Positions 14,920-58,269 of a DNA stretch of 64,000 nt are shown here, one piece after another. Origin of the DNA: Parcubacteria bacterium C7867-006 (lineage in GTDB: Bacteria; Patescibacteriota; Minisyncoccia; Phycocordibacterales; DATDWN01). The notes under the pieces are model-generated. The model searched no databases, had not been told where the DNA came from, and saw only the letters and a program-made list of their open reading frames with translations. The translations under genes were made by a program, and so were the position numbers. The DNA is taken from contig LFCP01000001.1 of the NCBI GenBank assembly GCA_001189155.1, forward strand, positions 23,160 through 87,159, written 5' to 3'. Position 1 is the first letter of the stretch, and the number at the start of each line of letters is the position of its first letter.

Positions 14920-15225
14920 ATGGTTTTTATTCGTAAAACTGAAGATTTTACTTGCGAGCATTGCGGATTTTTTGTAGAAGGCAATGGTTACACTAATCAC
15001 TGTCCTCAATGCCTGTATTCAAAACATGTTGATATAAACCCTGGAGATAGGTTGGCTACTTGTGGGGGATTGATGAAACCTATTGGAATAGAAAAGAAAG
15101 GTAAAGAATATATAATTAAACACAAATGTGTTAAATGTGGTTTTGAAAAACCAAATAAGGCAGTAAAGGAGGATAGTTTTGATATGATAGTTCAGATTTC
15201 TGCCAGCAGTCTTTCGAAGATTTAG
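14920..15225 (+). CDS. RNHCP-domain zinc-ribbon protein
   Basis: CEHCGF...NGYTNHCPQCLYSKHVD...GDRLATCGGLM...CVKCG matches the RNHCP domain pattern. The start is taken at Met 14920, inside the longer listed ORF. Confidence 0.65.
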   Translation: MVFIRKTEDFTCEHCGFFVEGNGYTNHCPQCLYSKHVDINPGDRLATCGGLMKPIGIEKKGKEYIIKHKCVKCGFEKPNKAVKEDSFDMIVQISASSLSKI

Positions 15226-15418
15226 TTTTCCAGAGACTGCGGAAGTAATTAGCAATTAACGACGAAGATAAAGTAAGCCCGAAGCATTGTTTGAGCACTA
15301 GTAATCTAGGCGAGTTTGCGAGAGGGCTACGTATCGAGAAGATTAATTGCTTGATTGCTGAGCGAGAGGAAAATTCTAGCAAGAATTTATCCGTGCTCTG
15401 GAAAACTAAATCGGAGTA

Positions 15419-19773: not shown

Positions 19774-19903
19774 ATAAAACTCGTAAATCTGGCAAATTTC
19801 TGTGTTGCTAGGATTATTTGCTCCACGCGCAGTACTATAATGTACAGCTTGGTCACAAATAATCCGTCGCGCCTTGAACTTTACTCAGATTTACGAGTTT
19901 TAT
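19774..19903 (-). repeat. Structured repeat element, copy 1: nested long hairpin (18-bp outer and 10-bp inner inverted repeats) homologous to 41722..41834
   Basis: Outer ataaaactcgtaaatctg / cagatttacgagttttat; inner ggattatttg / caaataatcc; conserved core GUUCAAGGCGCGACG...UAGUACUGCGC.UGGAG...CUAGCAAC. Confidence 0.6.
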
Positions 19904-24772: not shown

Positions 24773-25930
24773 TTATTCTGATACTCCTGTTTCAGATTCT
24801 ACTGGAGCTTCTGAAGTTTCAGTTTTTCCTCCAACAGACTGAATATCTATTTTCCAACCAGTAAGTTTTGCTGCTAGTCTAACGTTCTGTCCACCTTTTC
24901 CGATTGCTAATGACTGTTGGTCTTCAGAAACAGTAACAGTTGCTTGTTTTTCTGCTTCATTGATTTTTACGTCAATAGTTTTTGCAGGGGATAGAGCATC
25001 CTCAATGAATTTCTTTGGATCATCATTCCACTCTATAATATCTATTTTTTCTCCACCCAACTCTGACATAACAGTAGAGACACGAACTCCTCTTTGTCCA
25101 ACCATAGAACCGACAGGATCTATATGAGAATCTTTTGATGAAACAGCTATTTTTGTTCTAGAGCCAGCTTCTCGTGCTATAGATTTAACTATTACAGTTC
25201 CATTAGCTATTTCTGGAGCCTCTGTTTCAAAAAGTTTTTCTAGGAATTTTGGATGACTTCTAGAAAGTCTTAGAAACACACCTTTTCCTGACTCTTCTAC
25301 TCTGTATAGATAGGCTCGGATTCTCTCTCCCTGACCAAATCTTTCTCCAGGGATTTGTTCCTCATATGGAAGTAGTCCAGTAGCTCGGCCCATATCTATA
25401 AATATATTACCTCGCTCTATTCTCTGAACTGTTCCAGAGACAATTTCTCCTTCTCTTTTTCCATATTCAGACATAACAGAAACTTTCTCTGCTTCTCTGA
25501 TTTTTTGCATAATAACCTGCTTTGCTGTTTGAGCGGCAATTCTACTATAATCTTCCTGGCCTTCTAGAGGGAAAACCATCTCATCCCCAAGCTGAACGTC
25601 TTTTTTAATACGACGAGCATCACCAATCATTATGTGTTTCTCTGGGTTGTATAGTTCTATTTCAGCTTCACCTTCTTTGGGTTCTAGGGGTATTTCGTCC
25701 TCGTTCATTGCTACTGTTGACTCATCAACTACGATTTTTACCTGAAACATTTCAGTTTTTCCTGAATTCATATCAAATTTAGCTCGAACGATTTGTCCTT
25801 TCTTTCCATATTCCTTTTTGTAAGCAGTAGCTAAGGCAAGTTCAATAGCCTCAATGATTTTTGCTTGAGGGATTCCTCGCTCTTCTTCTAGTTGAGCTAG
25901 TACTGAATGTATAACTTTTAAGTCCATCAT
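24773..25930 (-). CDS. nusA: Transcription termination/antitermination factor NusA
   Basis: NusA N-terminal domain, S1 and KH domains. Start taken at MMDLKV (25930); the listed ORF to 26053 is an upstream extension. Confidence 0.85.
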   Translation of the reverse strand: MMDLKVIHSVLAQLEEERGIPQAKIIEAIELALATAYKKEYGKKGQIVRAKFDMNSGKTEMFQVKIVVDESTVAMNEDEIPLEPKEGEAEIELYNPEKHIMIGDARRIKKDVQLGDEMVFPLEGQEDYSRIAAQTAKQVIMQKIREAEKVSVMSEYGKREGEIVSGTVQRIERGNIFIDMGRATGLLPYEEQIPGERFGQGERIRAYLYRVEESGKGVFLRLSRSHPKFLEKLFETEAPEIANGTVIVKSIAREAGSRTKIAVSSKDSHIDPVGSMVGQRGVRVSTVMSELGGEKIDIIEWNDDPKKFIEDALSPAKTIDVKINEAEKQATVTVSEDQQSLAIGKGGQNVRLAAKLTGWKIDIQSVGGKTETSEAPVESETGVSE

Positions 25931-25949
25931 AATGATTTTTGTTAATTTT

Positions 25950-25980
25950 TTTAAAAAAATGGCCCGCCGTGAGGCGAACT
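25950..25980 (-). terminator. Intrinsic terminator/attenuator hairpin immediately upstream of the nusA start
   Basis: Minus strand GUUCGCC-UCAC-GGCGGGC followed by U7, about 25 nt before the ATG. Confidence 0.5.
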
Positions 25981-26029
25981 TCAATAAAACAATAATATCA
26001 GCAACTAAATTATTTGTCAAATTAATAAA

Positions 26030-32934: not shown

Positions 32935-34074
32935 ATGAAATACATTGATGAATTAAAGGGTGACGATCTGAAAGGTAAGTATGTTTTACTTAGACTTGAT
33001 TTGAATGTTCCTGTGTCTAACGGACAAGTTGTTAATGCATATAGAATAGACAGAGCAATTCCAACTATAGATTATTTGAGAGAGCATGGGGCCAAAGTGA
33101 TTATAATCGCTCATACTGAAAGCGATGCAAATATGACTCTTGTTCCGGTTGCGCAGTATTTAAGTGGTTTTTTTAAAATTGATTTTTGTCAGACCTACTT
33201 TAATCCAATAGCTATAGATAAAATATCAAAACTAGAAGATAGAGGTGTTTTGCTTTTTGAAAATCTCAGAATAAATCCAGAAGAAAAAGAAAACAATATA
33301 GAATTTGCAAAAAAATTAGCTCAAATGGCAGATATCTACGTTGATGATGCTTTTGGTGCAATGCACAGAAAGCACGCTTCCATTATAGGAGTCCCGGAGT
33401 TTCTTCCTCATTATGGTGGTTTGCTTTTGAAACAGGAGATTGAAAATCTATCAAAAGTTTTTTCTCCAAAGAAACCATTTCTATTTATTGTTGGTGGAGT
33501 GAAGTTCAGCACAAAACTACCTTTAATTAAAAAATATTTAGATAAGGCCGATTATGTTTTTATTGTTGGAGCTTTAGCTAACGGGATTTTTAAGGAGAAG
33601 GGTTTCACTTTGGGAACATCGCTATCTATTGATGGAGATTTTGGCATTAAAGAATTAATGAATAAGGATAATTTTTTGTATCCTATTGATGTAACAGTTC
33701 AAAAATCAGATGGATCTTTTGAATTCAGAAATCCAGATGAAATAGGTAACGACGAATATATCGGAGATCTTGGTCCAAAAACTATGGAAAAATTAAAGGA
33801 ATTGATTGGTATTTCAAAAACTGTCGTTTGGAATGGACCTTTGGGTGATTTTGAAAAAGGTTTCAAGGATAAGACAGAACAATTAGCAGAGGTTATTATG
33901 AAAGCTACAGAAGAAGGAAAGATAGAGAGTATTGTTGGTGGAGGTGATACTTTGGCTTCAATAAATATAAATGAGTTTGAGCATGGGTTTACTTTTGTCT
34001 CTACTGGTGGTGGAGCAATGCTTGATTATCTTGTCAACGAAACACTACCCGGCATAGAAGCATTAAATAAATAA
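32935..34074 (+). CDS. pgk: Phosphoglycerate kinase
   Basis: LLRLDLNVP N-terminal motif and GGGDTLA...STGGGAML C-terminal motif. Confidence 0.9.
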   Translation: MKYIDELKGDDLKGKYVLLRLDLNVPVSNGQVVNAYRIDRAIPTIDYLREHGAKVIIIAHTESDANMTLVPVAQYLSGFFKIDFCQTYFNPIAIDKISKLEDRGVLLFENLRINPEEKENNIEFAKKLAQMADIYVDDAFGAMHRKHASIIGVPEFLPHYGGLLLKQEIENLSKVFSPKKPFLFIVGGVKFSTKLPLIKKYLDKADYVFIVGALANGIFKEKGFTLGTSLSIDGDFGIKELMNKDNFLYPIDVTVQKSDGSFEFRNPDEIGNDEYIGDLGPKTMEKLKELIGISKTVVWNGPLGDFEKGFKDKTEQLAEVIMKATEEGKIESIVGGGDTLASININEFEHGFTFVSTGGGAMLDYLVNETLPGIEALNK

Positions 34075-34076
34075 AA

Positions 34077-34100
34077 TAAAACCGCCAATTGGCGGTTTTA
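34077..34100. terminator. Bidirectional intrinsic terminator shared by pgk and the HIT gene
   Basis: aaaaccgccaattggcggtttta. Confidence 0.75.
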
Positions 34101-34102
34101 TT

Positions 34103-34471
34103 TTATATAAACTCTTTTATCTTTTTTAAATTCTCTTCAAAATCTTTTGGATTGCCGGAGACTTCTTTGTTTGGAAACACCCATATATGAGCGTGGGGGA
34201 CTTCGTCTCCTATTATTCTAGATAATATAAAATCAGTATTAAAAGCTGATCGGAGAGCTAGAGCCACTTTTTTTGCTACTTCAAAATACTCTCCAGTGTT
34301 ATCAGTGTCCCAAACCCATCGAACGTGCTTCTTTGGGATTATTTGAGTATGTCCAGGGGATTGGGGGTTGATGTCTAGAAAAGCTAGATAATTATCATCC
34401 TCATATACTTTATATGAGGGTATTTCTCCAGCTACTATTTTGCAAAATATACAGTTTTCCATGGACTTCAT
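34103..34471 (-). CDS. HIT-family nucleotide hydrolase
   Basis: HIT motif HAHIWVFP and a CxxC N-terminus. Confidence 0.7.
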   Translation of the reverse strand: MKSMENCIFCKIVAGEIPSYKVYEDDNYLAFLDINPQSPGHTQIIPKKHVRWVWDTDNTGEYFEVAKKVALALRSAFNTDFILSRIIGDEVPHAHIWVFPNKEVSGNPKDFEENLKKIKEFI

Positions 34472-34485
34472 TATATCAAATGATG

Positions 34486-34628
34486 AGGTTTTTGTTTTTC
34501 CAGACCGCTCACTCCGCCAGCGCTTTGTTCGCTTAGTCCTCGGTTGAAATCTGTCAATGAGCCTTGCGGACGTTGACAGAACCAGCTTTCAACCTGCAGG
34601 GTCTTTCAAAACAAAAACCTCATCATTT
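34486..34628. ncRNA. Candidate structured RNA: about 140-nt nested perfect hairpin in the HIT/recJ divergent region
   Basis: Outer 18-20-bp stem tgatgaggtttttgtttt / aaaacaaaaacctcatca. Inner stems AGACC/GGUCU, GGUUGAAA/UUUCAACC and CUGUCAA/UUGACAG. GC-rich core. Confidence 0.3.
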
Positions 34629-34648
34629 GGTTGTGGTAAACTGTTTCT

Positions 34649-36391
34649 ATGTCAAAAAAGTACGCCTTGCGGGAGCCTATTCCAGAAAAGATAGATAAAT
34701 TATTTGAAGCTTATTCTCCTTTAGTCAGGTCACTTCTATACTCTAGAGGGATAGAAGATTTAGAGAATGCAGAAAGTTTTCTGAATCCAAAATACGAAAG
34801 TCTGCATAATCCTTTTCTTTTGAAAAACATGGATAAAGCGACGGAAAGAATTTTGAAAGCAATAAAAGAAAATGAAAAAATTGCCATATTCAGTGACTAT
34901 GATGCAGACGGTATTCCTGGGGGAGTAACGCTGCACGACTTTTTCAAAAAAATAGGTTACAACAATTTTATAAACTACATACCTCTCCGAAATGAAGAAG
35001 GGTTTGGACTAAACCATACAGCTATAGATAACATTGCATCACAAGATGTAAAATTGGTTATCACAATAGACTGTGGTATCACAGATGTTGAACAAGTAGA
35101 GACTGCGAACAAACATGGAATGGATGTGATCATCACCGATCACCACATTCCTGGAAAGAAACTTCCAAAAGCTTTTGCAATAATTAATCCAAAACAAAAT
35201 GGATGTGATTATCCAGAGAAAATGTTGCGTGGATCTGGAGTTGTTTTCAAAGTTATTCAGGCACTAATAATAAAAGGAAAAGAGGAAAAAGTTTTTGATT
35301 GGAAAGATGGGCAAGAGAAATGGTTTTTGGATATGGTTGGGCTTGCTACGCTTTCTGACATGGTGCCACTTTTAGGAGAGAATAGAATACTTTCATATTT
35401 TGGAATGAAAGTTTTACAGAGGACCCCGCGAGTTGGGCTTTTGAAACTATTATCCTTACTCAAGATAAACCAGGTAACACTTACAGAGGATGATATTGGT
35501 TTTATGGTTACTCCTCGTATAAATGCAGCCTCACGAATGGGTATACCACTTGATGCATTTAAACTTTTGTCTACAACAGACGAGGTTGAGGCGGGAATGC
35601 TGGCAGAACATTTGAATAATAAAAATGACGAGAGAAAAGGTGTGGTGGGGAGTATGATAAAGGAGGTTAAAAAAAGAATTGAAAATAGTGATACTGAGAT
35701 GAAGCATGTGCTCGTGTTTGGAAATCCAGAATGGAAACCGTCATTACTTGGTTTGGTTGCAAACAGTTTTGGTGATGAGCACAATCGACCAGTTTTCTTT
35801 TGGGGTAGGAATGGAGAGACAGAAGGTGATGGGATAATAAAAGGATCTTGTAGAGCTGGCGGAGATACAGATATAGTAAAACTAATGGAGAAAGCCAGTA
35901 CAATTTCTCCGGATATTTTTGTCGACTATGGGGGACACAAGGGAGCTGGAGGGTTCTCTATTTTGCAGGACAATATTCATACACTCGAAGACAGATTGAA
36001 CAAGGCTTTTGTAGAACTCTTGAATGAGCACAAAATTATAGAAGACACTCTACTAGACAAAAAGCTTTCAATCGATGACGTTAATTGGAATACATACAGC
36101 TCTGTCGAAAAGTTTGCACCATTTGGATTGGATAATCCCAAGCCACTATTTCTATTTGAAAACATAACTGTTTCGGCAATGAAATTGTTTGGTAAAGAAA
36201 AAAATCATCTAGAATTAAAATTTAAAAATTCAAATAGTAAGGATGTTACTGCAATAGCATTTTTTCAAAATGGAGACAGATTCGCTGTTCCAGTAAAAGA
36301 AGGAAGCAGTATAAATCTTGTAGCCACTTTGGAAAAATCCACTTTCCGAAACTTCCCAGAACTCCGTCTCAGAATAGTGGATGTGTTTTAG
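34649..36391 (+). CDS. recJ: Single-stranded-DNA-specific exonuclease RecJ
   Basis: DHH motifs (DYDADGI, DHH) and a DHHA1 domain; 580 aa. Confidence 0.85.
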   Translation: MSKKYALREPIPEKIDKLFEAYSPLVRSLLYSRGIEDLENAESFLNPKYESLHNPFLLKNMDKATERILKAIKENEKIAIFSDYDADGIPGGVTLHDFFKKIGYNNFINYIPLRNEEGFGLNHTAIDNIASQDVKLVITIDCGITDVEQVETANKHGMDVIITDHHIPGKKLPKAFAIINPKQNGCDYPEKMLRGSGVVFKVIQALIIKGKEEKVFDWKDGQEKWFLDMVGLATLSDMVPLLGENRILSYFGMKVLQRTPRVGLLKLLSLLKINQVTLTEDDIGFMVTPRINAASRMGIPLDAFKLLSTTDEVEAGMLAEHLNNKNDERKGVVGSMIKEVKKRIENSDTEMKHVLVFGNPEWKPSLLGLVANSFGDEHNRPVFFWGRNGETEGDGIIKGSCRAGGDTDIVKLMEKASTISPDIFVDYGGHKGAGGFSILQDNIHTLEDRLNKAFVELLNEHKIIEDTLLDKKLSIDDVNWNTYSSVEKFAPFGLDNPKPLFLFENITVSAMKLFGKEKNHLELKFKNSNSKDVTAIAFFQNGDRFAVPVKEGSSINLVATLEKSTFRNFPELRLRIVDVF

Positions 36392-36962: not shown

Positions 36963-37340
36963 CTAGATACCCAAGTCGTAGCGTTCGGTTGATGGAAGAT
37001 ATTTTCTTCCCAGCCACCGAAAGATGTAGTCCACGATAGATGAGACTTCAGGGATTTCTGGGTCGTTAGTCCTCCCGTACGGCTCAAATTTCATGAAGGT
37101 GAACTTCTTCACGAACACTCGGAGCGGAACTCCTCTTTGCAAGGAAGCCGAAGTTCCCATTGCAATAGAGTTCAGAAGACCAGAGAGAGTTGAGCCCTCT
37201 TTGTTCATTCTGACAAAAATCTCACCGAGTGTACCGTCGTCATAGACGCCGGTAGTGATGATGATTTCGTGTTCTCCGTTGATCCACACTGTCCGTGTAA
37301 ACCCGGCCCTTTCTGGGGGTAGACGATTTCTTTCTGCCAT
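36963..37340 (-). CDS. Isolated C-terminal fragment (125 aa) homologous to class II (B12-dependent) ribonucleotide reductase, part of cassette C
   Basis: GEIFVRMNKEGSTLSGLLNSIAMGTSASLQRGVPLRVFVKKFTFMKFEPYGRTNDPEIPEVSSIVDYIFRWL resembles the NrdJ C-terminal region. Own GGAGG SD. About 48% GC. No N-terminal catalytic part nearby. Confidence 0.45.
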   Translation of the reverse strand: MAERNRLPPERAGFTRTVWINGEHEIIITTGVYDDGTLGEIFVRMNKEGSTLSGLLNSIAMGTSASLQRGVPLRVFVKKFTFMKFEPYGRTNDPEIPEVSSIVDYIFRWLGRKYLPSTERYDLGI

Positions 37341-37407
37341 AGCGCCTCCGGACTTGATACTACCATTGATTACAAATAAGAAAAGACTTTCTGATATAAT
37401 AAAAAAT

Positions 37408-38082
37408 ATGACAATTATATTTACTGACGGATCATCTAGAGGTAATCCTGGTCCAGGAGGGTGGGGGGCGATAGTCTTAACAGAGGATTCTGCTCATGAA
37501 CTTGGTGGTAGGGAGGATGAAACTACAAACAACAGAATGGAAATGATGGCAGTTATTTCTGCATTAGAGTTCGCAAAAAATGAAAATGATATAATTCTAT
37601 ATACTGACTCTGCATATGTACTGAACGGTGCCACTCGTTGGGTAAAAGGTTGGGAGAAAAATAATTGGAAAACTTCAACAAAGGAAGATGTTGTAAATCG
37701 TGATTTGTGGGAAAAAATAATTCCTTTAACTGTACACAAAAATATTGATTGGCAGTTGGTTAAAGGTCACAGCGGAACAGAAGGCAATGAGCGTTGTGAT
37801 GTTATAGCAACATCATTTGCAGATAATGCTCCAGTTGTTTTGTATAACGGATCACGTGAGAGATATGGTGTTGATGTAAAAATAAACCAACCGAATTCAA
37901 ATAAAAAATCTAAATCAAAGAGCAAAGCCTATTCATATGTGAGTATGGTAGATGGTGTAATTCAAACTCACAAAACTTGGGATGAGTGCAAAGCTCGTGT
38001 AAATGGTGTTGCTGGAGCAAGATATAAAAAATCTGTTTCACCTGCAGACGAAGAGGAGATTATAAAAGAATTTGCTAACTAG
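37408..38082 (+). CDS. rnhA: Ribonuclease HI with a C-terminal hybrid-binding (caulimovirus viroplasmin-like) domain
   Basis: RNase H core TDGSSRGNPGPGGWG...TNNRMEMMAV...YTDS. C-terminal YSYVSMVDGVIQTHKTWDECKARVNGVAGARYKKSVSPADEEEIIKEF matches the HBD consensus. Start taken at 37408. Confidence 0.75.
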   Translation: MTIIFTDGSSRGNPGPGGWGAIVLTEDSAHELGGREDETTNNRMEMMAVISALEFAKNENDIILYTDSAYVLNGATRWVKGWEKNNWKTSTKEDVVNRDLWEKIIPLTVHKNIDWQLVKGHSGTEGNERCDVIATSFADNAPVVLYNGSRERYGVDVKINQPNSNKKSKSKSKAYSYVSMVDGVIQTHKTWDECKARVNGVAGARYKKSVSPADEEEIIKEFAN

Positions 38083-38222
38083 TTATGACACCTACTATAG
38101 TTAAAATTTTTTTGGAACATCGCGGAGTCCGTGAAGAGACGAGCGCGAAGAAAATTTTCAGCAGAAAATTATTCTGTTTCCAAAAAAGTTTTAAATATAG
38201 TAGGCGATAAATTTTAAAATTT

Positions 38223-57608: not shown

Positions 57609-58157
57609 ATGGAATCAACAAAAACAAAAACAGCAGGTGCATTCGAGGCTTTGAAAAAAGATTTCGGATACAAAAATAAGATGCAGGCTCCAAAAATACA
57701 GAAGCTGGTTGTTTCTGCTGGTGTCGGTTCAATAAAAGATAAAAAGAAAATTGAATTAGTTGCAGATAGACTTTCAAAAATCACTGGACAAAAACCAGTT
57801 AAGAAAGGAGCAAAGGTTTCTATTGCATCATTTAAAACACGACAGGGTGATATTGTTGGAATGCAAGTTACTTTGCGAGGAGCTAGAATGTATGATTTCC
57901 TAGATAAGCTTATTCATGTTGCTATTCCTAGAACAAAGGACTTCCGAGGTATTTCTCCTACAGGAGTAGATGAGATGGGTAACTACACTATGGGTATAAA
58001 AGAAAATACTATTTTCCCAGAATGTTCAGATGAAGAGTTGAAAGATGTTTTCGGCCTAGCTATCACAGTAGTTACAAACATAAAGAATCCAAAGGAAACA
58101 AAAGCATTTCTAGACTATCTAGGATTTCCATTTAAAAAAGTAGAAGCAAAGAAGTAG
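57609..58157 (+). CDS. rplE: 50S ribosomal protein L5
   Basis: Canonical L5 sequence. Terminator aaaaaccgctcaattgagcggttttt at 58166-58193. Confidence 0.95.
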   Translation: MESTKTKTAGAFEALKKDFGYKNKMQAPKIQKLVVSAGVGSIKDKKKIELVADRLSKITGQKPVKKGAKVSIASFKTRQGDIVGMQVTLRGARMYDFLDKLIHVAIPRTKDFRGISPTGVDEMGNYTMGIKENTIFPECSDEELKDVFGLAITVVTNIKNPKETKAFLDYLGFPFKKVEAKK

Positions 58158-58269
58158 CATTAAGAAAAACCGCTCAATTGAGCGGTTTTTCTTTGGATTA
58201 CTAATGTTGACTTTTAATGGCTATTCTGATAACCTAAACCCAGCTTGAAAAAGCTTTTTTAATTACTTT

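Follow-up and report, generated by a model that had tools for sequence, protein, structure and literature searches.

ERIC/IRU elements of the Enterobacteriaceae and Vibrio are imperfect intergenic palindromes of ~130 nt that recur across genera, are linked to no particular gene and vary in length owing to internal insertions or deletions. BOX elements of Streptococcus pneumoniae are built from boxA and boxC, which pair as a stem, and from variable modules in the middle; they occur in tens to hundreds of intergenic copies, are restricted to the species and are near-identical to one another. Correia elements (NEMIS) of Neisseria have near-identical copies with TA target duplications. These elements and the RNase III signals of phage T7 early mRNA are cut by RNase III and modulate the stability of the flanking mRNA.

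Such structured intergenic repeats (ERIC, BOX, REP/BIME and Correia) are the nearest known kind to the element described here. We analyzed a 64,000-nt stretch of DNA from Parcubacteria bacterium C7867-006 (the window) and found that a hairpin at positions 34477-34629 belongs to a widespread family of palindromic intergenic elements, branched and covarying, in Parcubacteria/Paceibacteria-type CPR bacteria. Like REP/ERIC/BOX-type repeats, family members are dispersed, intergenic imperfect palindromes, many per genome by extrapolation, with no linked gene.

A branched element between HIT and recJ

A HIT-family gene (minus strand) and recJ (plus strand) diverge from a 177-nt spacer, which the element fills; the HIT and RecJ domains were confirmed. 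The TATAAT -10 box of the HIT gene (34470-34475, minus strand) lies in the left flank, outside the element and 7 nt before the ATG at 34462. The extended -10 box of recJ, TGTGGTAAACT (34632-34642, plus strand), lies in the right flank, also outside the element and 6 nt before the ATG at 34649. With -10 boxes only 6-7 nt from their ATGs, both genes look leaderless. Between pgk and the HIT gene, at 34068-34109, AAAACCGCCAA/TTGGCGGTTTT and its A and T tracts make up a canonical bidirectional terminator, so ordinary terminators coexist with the branched elements.

The segment 34470-34645 has an RNA minimum free energy (MFE) of -65.9 kcal/mol, compared with -38.9 +/- 4.2 kcal/mol for 200 dinucleotide shuffles (z = -6.41), none of which folds equally well. 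Its closing helix, P1, has two arms of 30 nt each (34477-34506 and 34600-34629) with 90% complementarity. The outer part is a perfect 21-bp stem, AAATGATGAGGTTTTTGTTTT (34478-34498 with 34608-34628), followed by a 3x3 internal loop (TCC at 34499-34501 opposite TTC at 34605-34607) and an inner pairing of AGACC (34502-34506) with GGTCT (34600-34604). The 21-mer of the P1 arm occurs once in the window (0.01 matches expected), and searching the window by sequence returned no further copy of arm or core; relatives there surfaced only through a covariance model and inverted repeats.

Inside P1, positions 34507-34535 (plus strand, as are all parts of the element) form a branch hairpin, P2, and the junction, as delineated by an alignment of family copies, RNAalifold and mutual information. 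The P2 pairs of the window copy are G34507-C34532, C34508-G34531, A34511-T34528, C34512-G34527, G34516-C34523 and C34517-G34522, with a CAGC tetraloop (34518-34521) and a UC/UC internal loop (34509-34510/34529-34530). A TTA within the same segment is the junction to the third arm. The base of that arm is P3a, in which GTCCTC (34536-34541) pairs with TGCAGG(G) (34595-34601), and P3 follows, pairing GGTTGAAA (34542-34549) with TTTCAACC (34587-34594). ACCAGC (34581-34586; family consensus ACC-N1-2-GCU) is the long side of an asymmetric internal loop between P3 and P4. P4 pairs TCTGTCAA (34550-34557) with TTGACAGA (34573-34580), that is, (T)CTGTCAA with TTGACAG(A), and encloses a 15-nt apical loop, TGAGCCTTGCGGACG (34558-34572). 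The 3' strands of P3, P3a and the remainder of P1 thus occupy 34587-34629.

Covariation of P2 across the family identifies the fold as a three-way junction, formed by the long closing helix P1, the side hairpin P2 and a long arm (P3a, P3, the ACC..GCU loop, P4 and the apex). The original prediction described a 140-nt perfectly nested hairpin. All of the stems that it listed are in place, but the structure is branched and the 29 nt of P2 (34507-34535) had been missed. Its further claim, that there is more structure here than a terminator or operator needs, agrees with a conserved structured element that has abundant compensatory changes. The window copy is somewhat degenerate (P2 contains a 3x3 mismatch, P3a a C-A mismatch) and shares its degenerate upper P2 with three other copies (L006, L109 and L137). 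It belongs to a class with UCC-AGACC-GC / GCRG-GGUCU-UYC, which also includes L034, L044, L094, L111, L122, L127 and L137.

Covariation in the family and its superfamily

We drew a core pattern from the conserved blocks of six copies, which are separated by covarying stems. The pattern matched in at least 120 metagenome stretches, and a search of viral contigs with it gave 0 matches. Among the matches listed are 128 instances, 116 of them distinct, including one likely chance match (L141). An alignment of 115 copies among the matches listed (alignment A2) was read by RNAalifold, mutual information and explicit pair counting. Against the family covariance model, the window copy reaches 97.5 bits (E = 1e-23).

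Conservation and covariation in related genomes had been proposed as a check, and covariation is strong across the 115 aligned copies. In A2, 91.6% of cells are paired, compared with 71.6% in column shuffles and 35-51% with slid partners. Double changes occur in 745 cells (239 when shuffled) and in 19 of the 28 pairs. The covariation score is 0.564, against 0.193 for shuffled and 0.07-0.20 for slid controls. Mutual information recovered nested helices only, with no tertiary or pseudoknot pairs in this alignment, and the P2-loop and GCU-loop bases show no variation in it.

P1 is long (20-45 bp) and variable in sequence across the family. P2 spans ~10 bp and is capped by a YNGY tetraloop (C-NGC in A2); of 115 copies, 63 have a 2x2 UC/UC internal loop and 26 have A-U pairs in its place. 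All eight P2 pairs have double changes, and mutual information extends the helix to columns 28-29/57-58. The junction to the third arm reads UCU(A), and P3a reads GUCC(U)C / G(C)GGAU, with 84 U-A and 30 U-G pairs. P3 has 7-8 bp, and its seven pairs covary heavily (column 74/147, for example, has UA 42, GC 25 and CG 25). The asymmetric loop has A on one side and ACC-N-GCU on the other; P4 is NNNGUCAA / UUGACNNN, with covariation in its outer three pairs (UA 54, CG 38, GC 21), and the apex varies from 8-10-nt loops to hairpins of up to ~35 nt.

The blocks GTCCTC, GTCAA, TTGA, ACC and TGCRG, including the P3a C-G pairs, were fixed by the search pattern, and their invariance is therefore inflated and partly a product of construction. 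Copies recovered only by the covariance model keep P4 and ACC..GCU, and P3a is compensated among them (GUGCUC/UGCGCA in L095:2310-2458 and GUUUUC/UCAAAUAC in L094:1077-1223). Outer P1 boundaries from RNAfold and RNAduplex were over-extended and were left unused. In one orthologous series (L035, L062, L114 and L058), the core is nearly invariant and P1 and P3 change by paired substitutions, while the flanks outside the element diverge.

The family is absent from Rfam 15 and apparently uncatalogued; in the literature on non-coding RNAs and repeats of CPR/Patescibacteria we found no earlier description. It is easy to model, since the covariance model already separates members cleanly, and it is of practical use as a marker in metagenome-assembled CPR genomes, where it is also a source of annotation artefacts.

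Many relatives have termini of the form AATCTCTT(T/A)CTC ... CTC(A/G)ACGAGATT and a conserved 7x6 bubble in P1. A wider superfamily is united by common termini, AATCTCTTTCTC...CTCAACGAGATT, and a YNGY-loop P2, and its third arms differ. It includes 'mini' elements of 114-122 nt (two in L008 and others in L006, L020 and L090), an 'M2' scaffold (L101, L120 and L129), 'type C' (L007, L095:6501 and L001) and 'type D', which is M2 plus a ~110-nt arm (two in L144, and L135 and L005). In the sampled DNA a superfamily member occurs about every 15-30 kb; extrapolated to a whole genome, this amounts to tens of members. CPR genomes are tiny and have very short spacers, yet an estimated 1% of their DNA seems to be spent on branched elements.

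The window contains at least three superfamily members, at 34477-34629 (plus strand), 38091-38204 (minus strand) and 15219-15412 (minus strand), in all of which perfect P1 stems take the place of the canonical termini and bubble. The 114-nt 'mini' member at 38091-38204 (covariance model 22.9 bits, E = 0.006; inverted repeat I4) has a 27-nt P1, a P2 of AGAATAATTTTC-TGCT-GAAAATTTTCT and a short third hairpin closed by TCGCG/CGCGA; its blastn homologues are in L090, L008 (two), L006, L020 and L065. It sits just downstream of an RNase H gene (37255-38082). The 194-nt 'type D' member at 15219-15412 is closed by a perfect 17-bp P1 (GATTTAGTTTTCCAGAG / CTCTGGAAAACTAAATC); its P2 loop is TGCT, and its third arm measures ~110 nt. 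Its homologues are the type D copies named above, that of L005 being in a HIT-recJ spacer.

Three other features of the window were recorded. A separate conserved element, 'type E' (19774-19903), is an 18-bp perfect inverted repeat around 94 nt. Its interior has blastn homologues at 12 loci (L053, L042, L001, L065, L096, L038, L087, L144, L046, L079, L124 and L082), and its conserved blocks include UUGCUCCACGCGCAGUA-hairpin-UACAGCUUGGUCGCA. At 58077-58208, a 22-nt imperfect inverted repeat surrounds a canonical terminator hairpin (58162-58193) and has no homologues in the fetched loci. Finally, GC skew turns from negative to positive at ~25000-26000, with a cumulative minimum near 24-26 kb that may mark a replication origin or terminus.

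Dispersal, module exchange and orthologous sites

Confirmed neighbours of the element are housekeeping genes: ftsK, recA, efp, rpsF-ssb-rpsR, rplM-rpsI, grpE and dnaK. Two more, rpoD and gyrA, are suggested by reading of the flanking sequences. No adjacent gene is conserved; the largest protein cluster among the matches listed (8 of 117) reflects RecJ synteny. The element mostly fills its spacer, beginning a few nucleotides past the upstream stop codon. Among the matches listed, 65 copies have the same orientation as the upstream gene and 33 have the opposite one, and tandem contexts are same-sense in 41 and antisense in 21.

Two to three copies can occur within a few kb (up to three in 4-5 kb; L031, L117, L090 and L095). 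Others form tail-to-tail pairs on opposite strands, 25-60 nt apart (L094:1077-1391 and L071:987-1303). Copies on the same contig are mosaics: in L117 and L031 they have an identical third arm and unrelated P1 and P2, in L090 they share P1, P2 and the 3' flank and differ in their arms, and in L095 they share P2 only. The exchange boundaries are GTCCTC and TGCGG, and the mosaics look like short-tract gene conversion or cassette exchange among dispersed copies. Thirteen copies lie near contig ends against 10 expected; this lack of enrichment indicates that the copies are not near-identical recent repeats.

A RecJ search of species-representative genomes returned 29 loci, all from CPR bacteria (labelled Zambryskibacteria, Paceibacterota, Parcubacteria or Minisyncoccia), and the divergent HIT-recJ order is retained in ~21 of them. 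Five of the 21 spacers contain a clear homologue (L002, L004, L006 and L012, with an inverted copy in L023) and two contain a related element with a different third arm (L007 and L005). The other 14 have no member, including that of L001, whose RecJ is 92% identical and whose spacer holds the two -10 boxes 8 nt apart. TGTGnTAnACT precedes recJ in L001-L027 whether or not the element is present, and relatives with an empty site keep the HIT TATAAT box directly beside the recJ box. The element is thus dispensable for HIT and recJ.

A dedicated regulatory role at HIT/recJ does not agree with these empty spacers or with the occurrence of the same family beside unrelated housekeeping genes. Absence from close relatives had been named as a sign against the original prediction; the element is indeed missing in some close relatives, but is conserved in many distant ones. 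An ordinary locus-specific feature, whether a chance hairpin, a terminator or a HIT/recJ operator, would suit a location between two promoters. It is already refuted by at least 120 homologues elsewhere, the covariation and the 14 syntenic relatives without the element. The folding score (z = -6.4) and a terminator scan that does not call the element also count against it, and we assign it practically no probability.

Where the element is absent, some spacers upstream of recJ (those of L003, L015 and L027) contain unrelated perfect palindromes, such as AAATTTCACAGCGATATATCGCTGTGAAATTT in L003. The HIT-recJ site thus seems to collect palindromes and could be a hot spot.

Several observations would fit selfish, non-autonomous mobile DNA of a MITE- or REPIN-like kind, whose folded single strand would be recognized by a transposase or recombinase encoded elsewhere and whose conservation would reflect competence for mobility. 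First, presence varies at the same spacer in close relatives, with the inverted copy and the other element types at HIT-recJ. Second, the family has conserved, imperfect terminal inverted repeats (AATCTC..GAGATT) and a fixed asymmetric bubble, although these termini are missing in the window copy. Finally, there are several copies per contig with module exchange, long perfect stems and helices that lack strand asymmetry. Against mobility, comparison of filled and empty HIT-recJ spacers revealed no direct repeat that would be a target-site duplication; the flanks of the element are often complementary in inverted orientation. No transposase-like gene or ORF recurs, and no RAYT (IS200/IS605-like) transposase is among the neighbours examined. 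Copies within a genome have diverged to the point that whole modules differ, assemblies are unbroken at them, P1 sequences are unique to each locus and the orthologous core is conserved in place while its flanks diverge. Persistence across a class in streamlined genomes would also be unusual for selfish DNA. We regard mobile DNA as an unlikely explanation, though one to be taken seriously; if it holds, long-lived repeat families persist in streamlined genomes. Conservation of the core at orthologous sites and long persistence make a fold used by the host somewhat likelier than purely selfish DNA.

Strand, function and known classes

We detected no promoter, terminator or T-run at a fixed distance on either strand, and enrichment of T past the element is limited to the first two positions. 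An apparent outward promoter in the 3' 'tail' (TGTTAGTGGTAAT...) was rejected, since the tail pairs with the 5' flank and is an additional outer part of P1. The terminator scan called 34071-34106 and did not call the element; an intrinsic terminator, which has a U tract directly after a short G+C-rich stem, was set aside.

Signals for strand conflict when G-U/A-C counts, MFE and loop composition are compared. Mismatch counts are A-C 61 and G-U 37 in P2 and A-C 20 and G-U 12 in P3, and the G-U fraction of P1 is 7.3% forward and 6.8% reverse. The two kinds of mismatch are of similar frequency and the helices lack strand asymmetry in G-U versus A-C; only P3a has one-sided U-G pairs. On the strand that is usually sense to the neighbours (plus in the window), unpaired positions are 37% C and 28% U, with conserved U-C mismatches. 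On the complement they are purine-rich (37% G, 28% A), and tandem sheared G-A pairs would form at the P2 loop, the P1 bubble and P3a. The complement folds ~3 kcal/mol better and is the more stable RNA in 89 of 115 copies. Four loci (L146, L057, L068 and L065) have perfect P1 stems of 30-34 bp with unrelated sequences, which suggests a process at the level of DNA that restores complementarity (palindrome homogenization).

The explanation we favour, tentatively and at a little under even chances, is a cis-acting punctuation module read as RNA, serving as a site of RNase III-type processing, end protection or insulation. We infer that the element, lying between transcription units, would be transcribed passively with its neighbours. 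The transcript would fold into a long stem resembling double-stranded RNA and capped by the junction, and a conserved host factor would recognize this fold, with one of these three outcomes. The modules would be kept alike by gene conversion among the copies, of which a genome probably has tens. Several observations count against this punctuation role: the genome has canonical terminators, so that a terminator role is not needed; the helices have no G-U versus A-C asymmetry; RNA-like features (G-A pairs, purine loops, better MFE) are on the complement; orientation relative to neighbours is only 2:1; and the perfect 30-34-bp P1 stems have unrelated sequences.

The features of the complement could instead point to trans-acting, stable small RNAs made from that strand (minus in the window) and trimmed at P1, which would act as a protein scaffold in the manner of Y, 6S or pRNA. 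Strong covariation and the lower MFE agree with such RNAs, as do the purine-rich unpaired positions and the tandem sheared G-A pairs, which fall in three conserved internal loops. Ribonucleoprotein RNAs typically combine a conserved three-way junction with peripheral arms that vary. But a promoter or terminator at a fixed distance is absent on either side, there are probably tens of heterogeneous copies per genome, two of every three tandem contexts place the complement antisense to its neighbours, the U-G pairs of P3a speak for the opposite strand and Rfam holds no relative. On balance we consider trans-acting RNAs rather improbable.

Lower still we place a role as double-stranded or cruciform DNA, the latter an alternative in the original prediction; examples would be a BIME-like site bound by a nucleoid protein or gyrase, or a supercoil sink between transcription units (here the divergent HIT/recJ promoters). 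Pairing is strand-symmetric, P1 is perfect and AT-rich, orientation is largely indifferent and unrelated perfect palindromes occur in the same divergent spacer of L003 and L015. In a duplex, it is hard to see a use for the conserved three-way junction, the tetraloops and the asymmetric loops, and extrusion of a cruciform would be kinetically hard with ~90 nt between the arms.

A speculative and unlikely possibility is that modular three-way-junction RNAs (the family, the mini elements, types C and D and perhaps type E) constitute a genome-wide punctuation or ribonucleoprotein system of CPR bacteria, or a catalytic junction. Polycistronic transcripts would be cut or marked by a dedicated factor that recognizes the junction, in partial analogy to the tRNA punctuation of mitochondria. 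If either holds, the elements would be a new functional RNA class specific to a large and poorly understood branch of bacteria. For a new class of self-cleaving ribozyme in particular, the conserved junction core, variable peripheral stems, lack of gene association and several copies per genome recall twister and hammerhead. Such a class is very improbable given that there is no hammerhead, twister or hairpin core motif, no match to an Rfam ribozyme (hammerhead, twister, twister-sister, pistol, hatchet, hairpin or HDV) and few invariant unpaired bases shared by superfamily members. If the elements act as RNA in any manner, they would be one of few structured RNA classes specific to CPR bacteria and a clue to transcript organization in organisms with few regulators and leaderless genes.

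Known classes were compared by way of Rfam 15, a check that the original prediction had called for. A gathering-score scan of the window returned four tRNAs only, a scan of 34300-34800 at E <= 10 returned nothing credible on the element and 18 other element-bearing loci gave no match at E <= 5. The suggestion of a 6S-like RNA fails as well. There is a likeness to 6S RNA (RF00013) in size (~150-190 nt) and in the long, irregular hairpin outline, but RF00013 does not match. In place of the open central bubble of 6S is a three-way junction with covarying P2 on one side and ~3-8 nt on the other. 6S has one or two genes per genome with their own promoter and terminator, whereas the modular element reaches three copies in 4-5 kb and has neither signal at a fixed distance on either strand.

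Other candidates were rejected individually. A riboswitch or cis-regulatory leader does not fit, as no neighbour family occurs beyond synteny and all four orientation classes occur. A retron msr-msd would have an adjacent reverse-transcriptase gene, and the neighbours here are HIT and RecJ. Motifs such as GUCC, ACAGAACC..GCU, CAGAGAC and UUGCGG recall SRP, RNase P, group I intron, hairpin/hammerhead and Y RNAs, whose motif order or topology misfits and whose models do not match. An integron attC site is likewise a structure-defined site after genes; inward from its conserved outer stem come a central unpaired bubble, an inner stem and a terminal structure that varies. The element has no RYYYAAC/GTTRRRY boxes, its termini are AATCTC/GAGATT, its terminal structure is conserved rather than free and the genes between copies (recA, efp, dnaK, grpE and rpsI) are housekeeping genes rather than cassettes. 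Together, the phylum-scale, multi-copy, modular and covarying nature of the branched element, its dispensability at HIT-recJ and its lack of a cognate gene or of its own transcription signals exclude 6S RNA, a riboswitch or leader, an ordinary terminator or operator, attC and retrons.

The comparison with structured intergenic repeats is closer. The element has the imperfect-palindrome, intergenic and gene-unlinked character of ERIC/IRU, but adds a conserved three-way junction, a swappable third arm and a locus-specific P1, occurs in another phylum and has no sequence similarity to ERIC. With BOX it shares a modular build and dispersal between genes; its copies, in contrast, are diverged, its stems covary and the family spans a class-level radiation. 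REP, BIME and REPIN sequences are also intergenic palindromic repeats after genes with a hairpin maintained by compensatory change, whereas the element lacks a GTAG-type motif, is much larger and is branched. Correia elements and the T7 signals resemble it in having long stems with a conserved internal bubble between cistrons, RNase III cleavage being a proposal in the case of the element. What sets it apart from ERIC, BOX, REP and Correia is the combination of a three-way junction, a swappable third arm, locus-specific stems and class-wide persistence in streamlined genomes.
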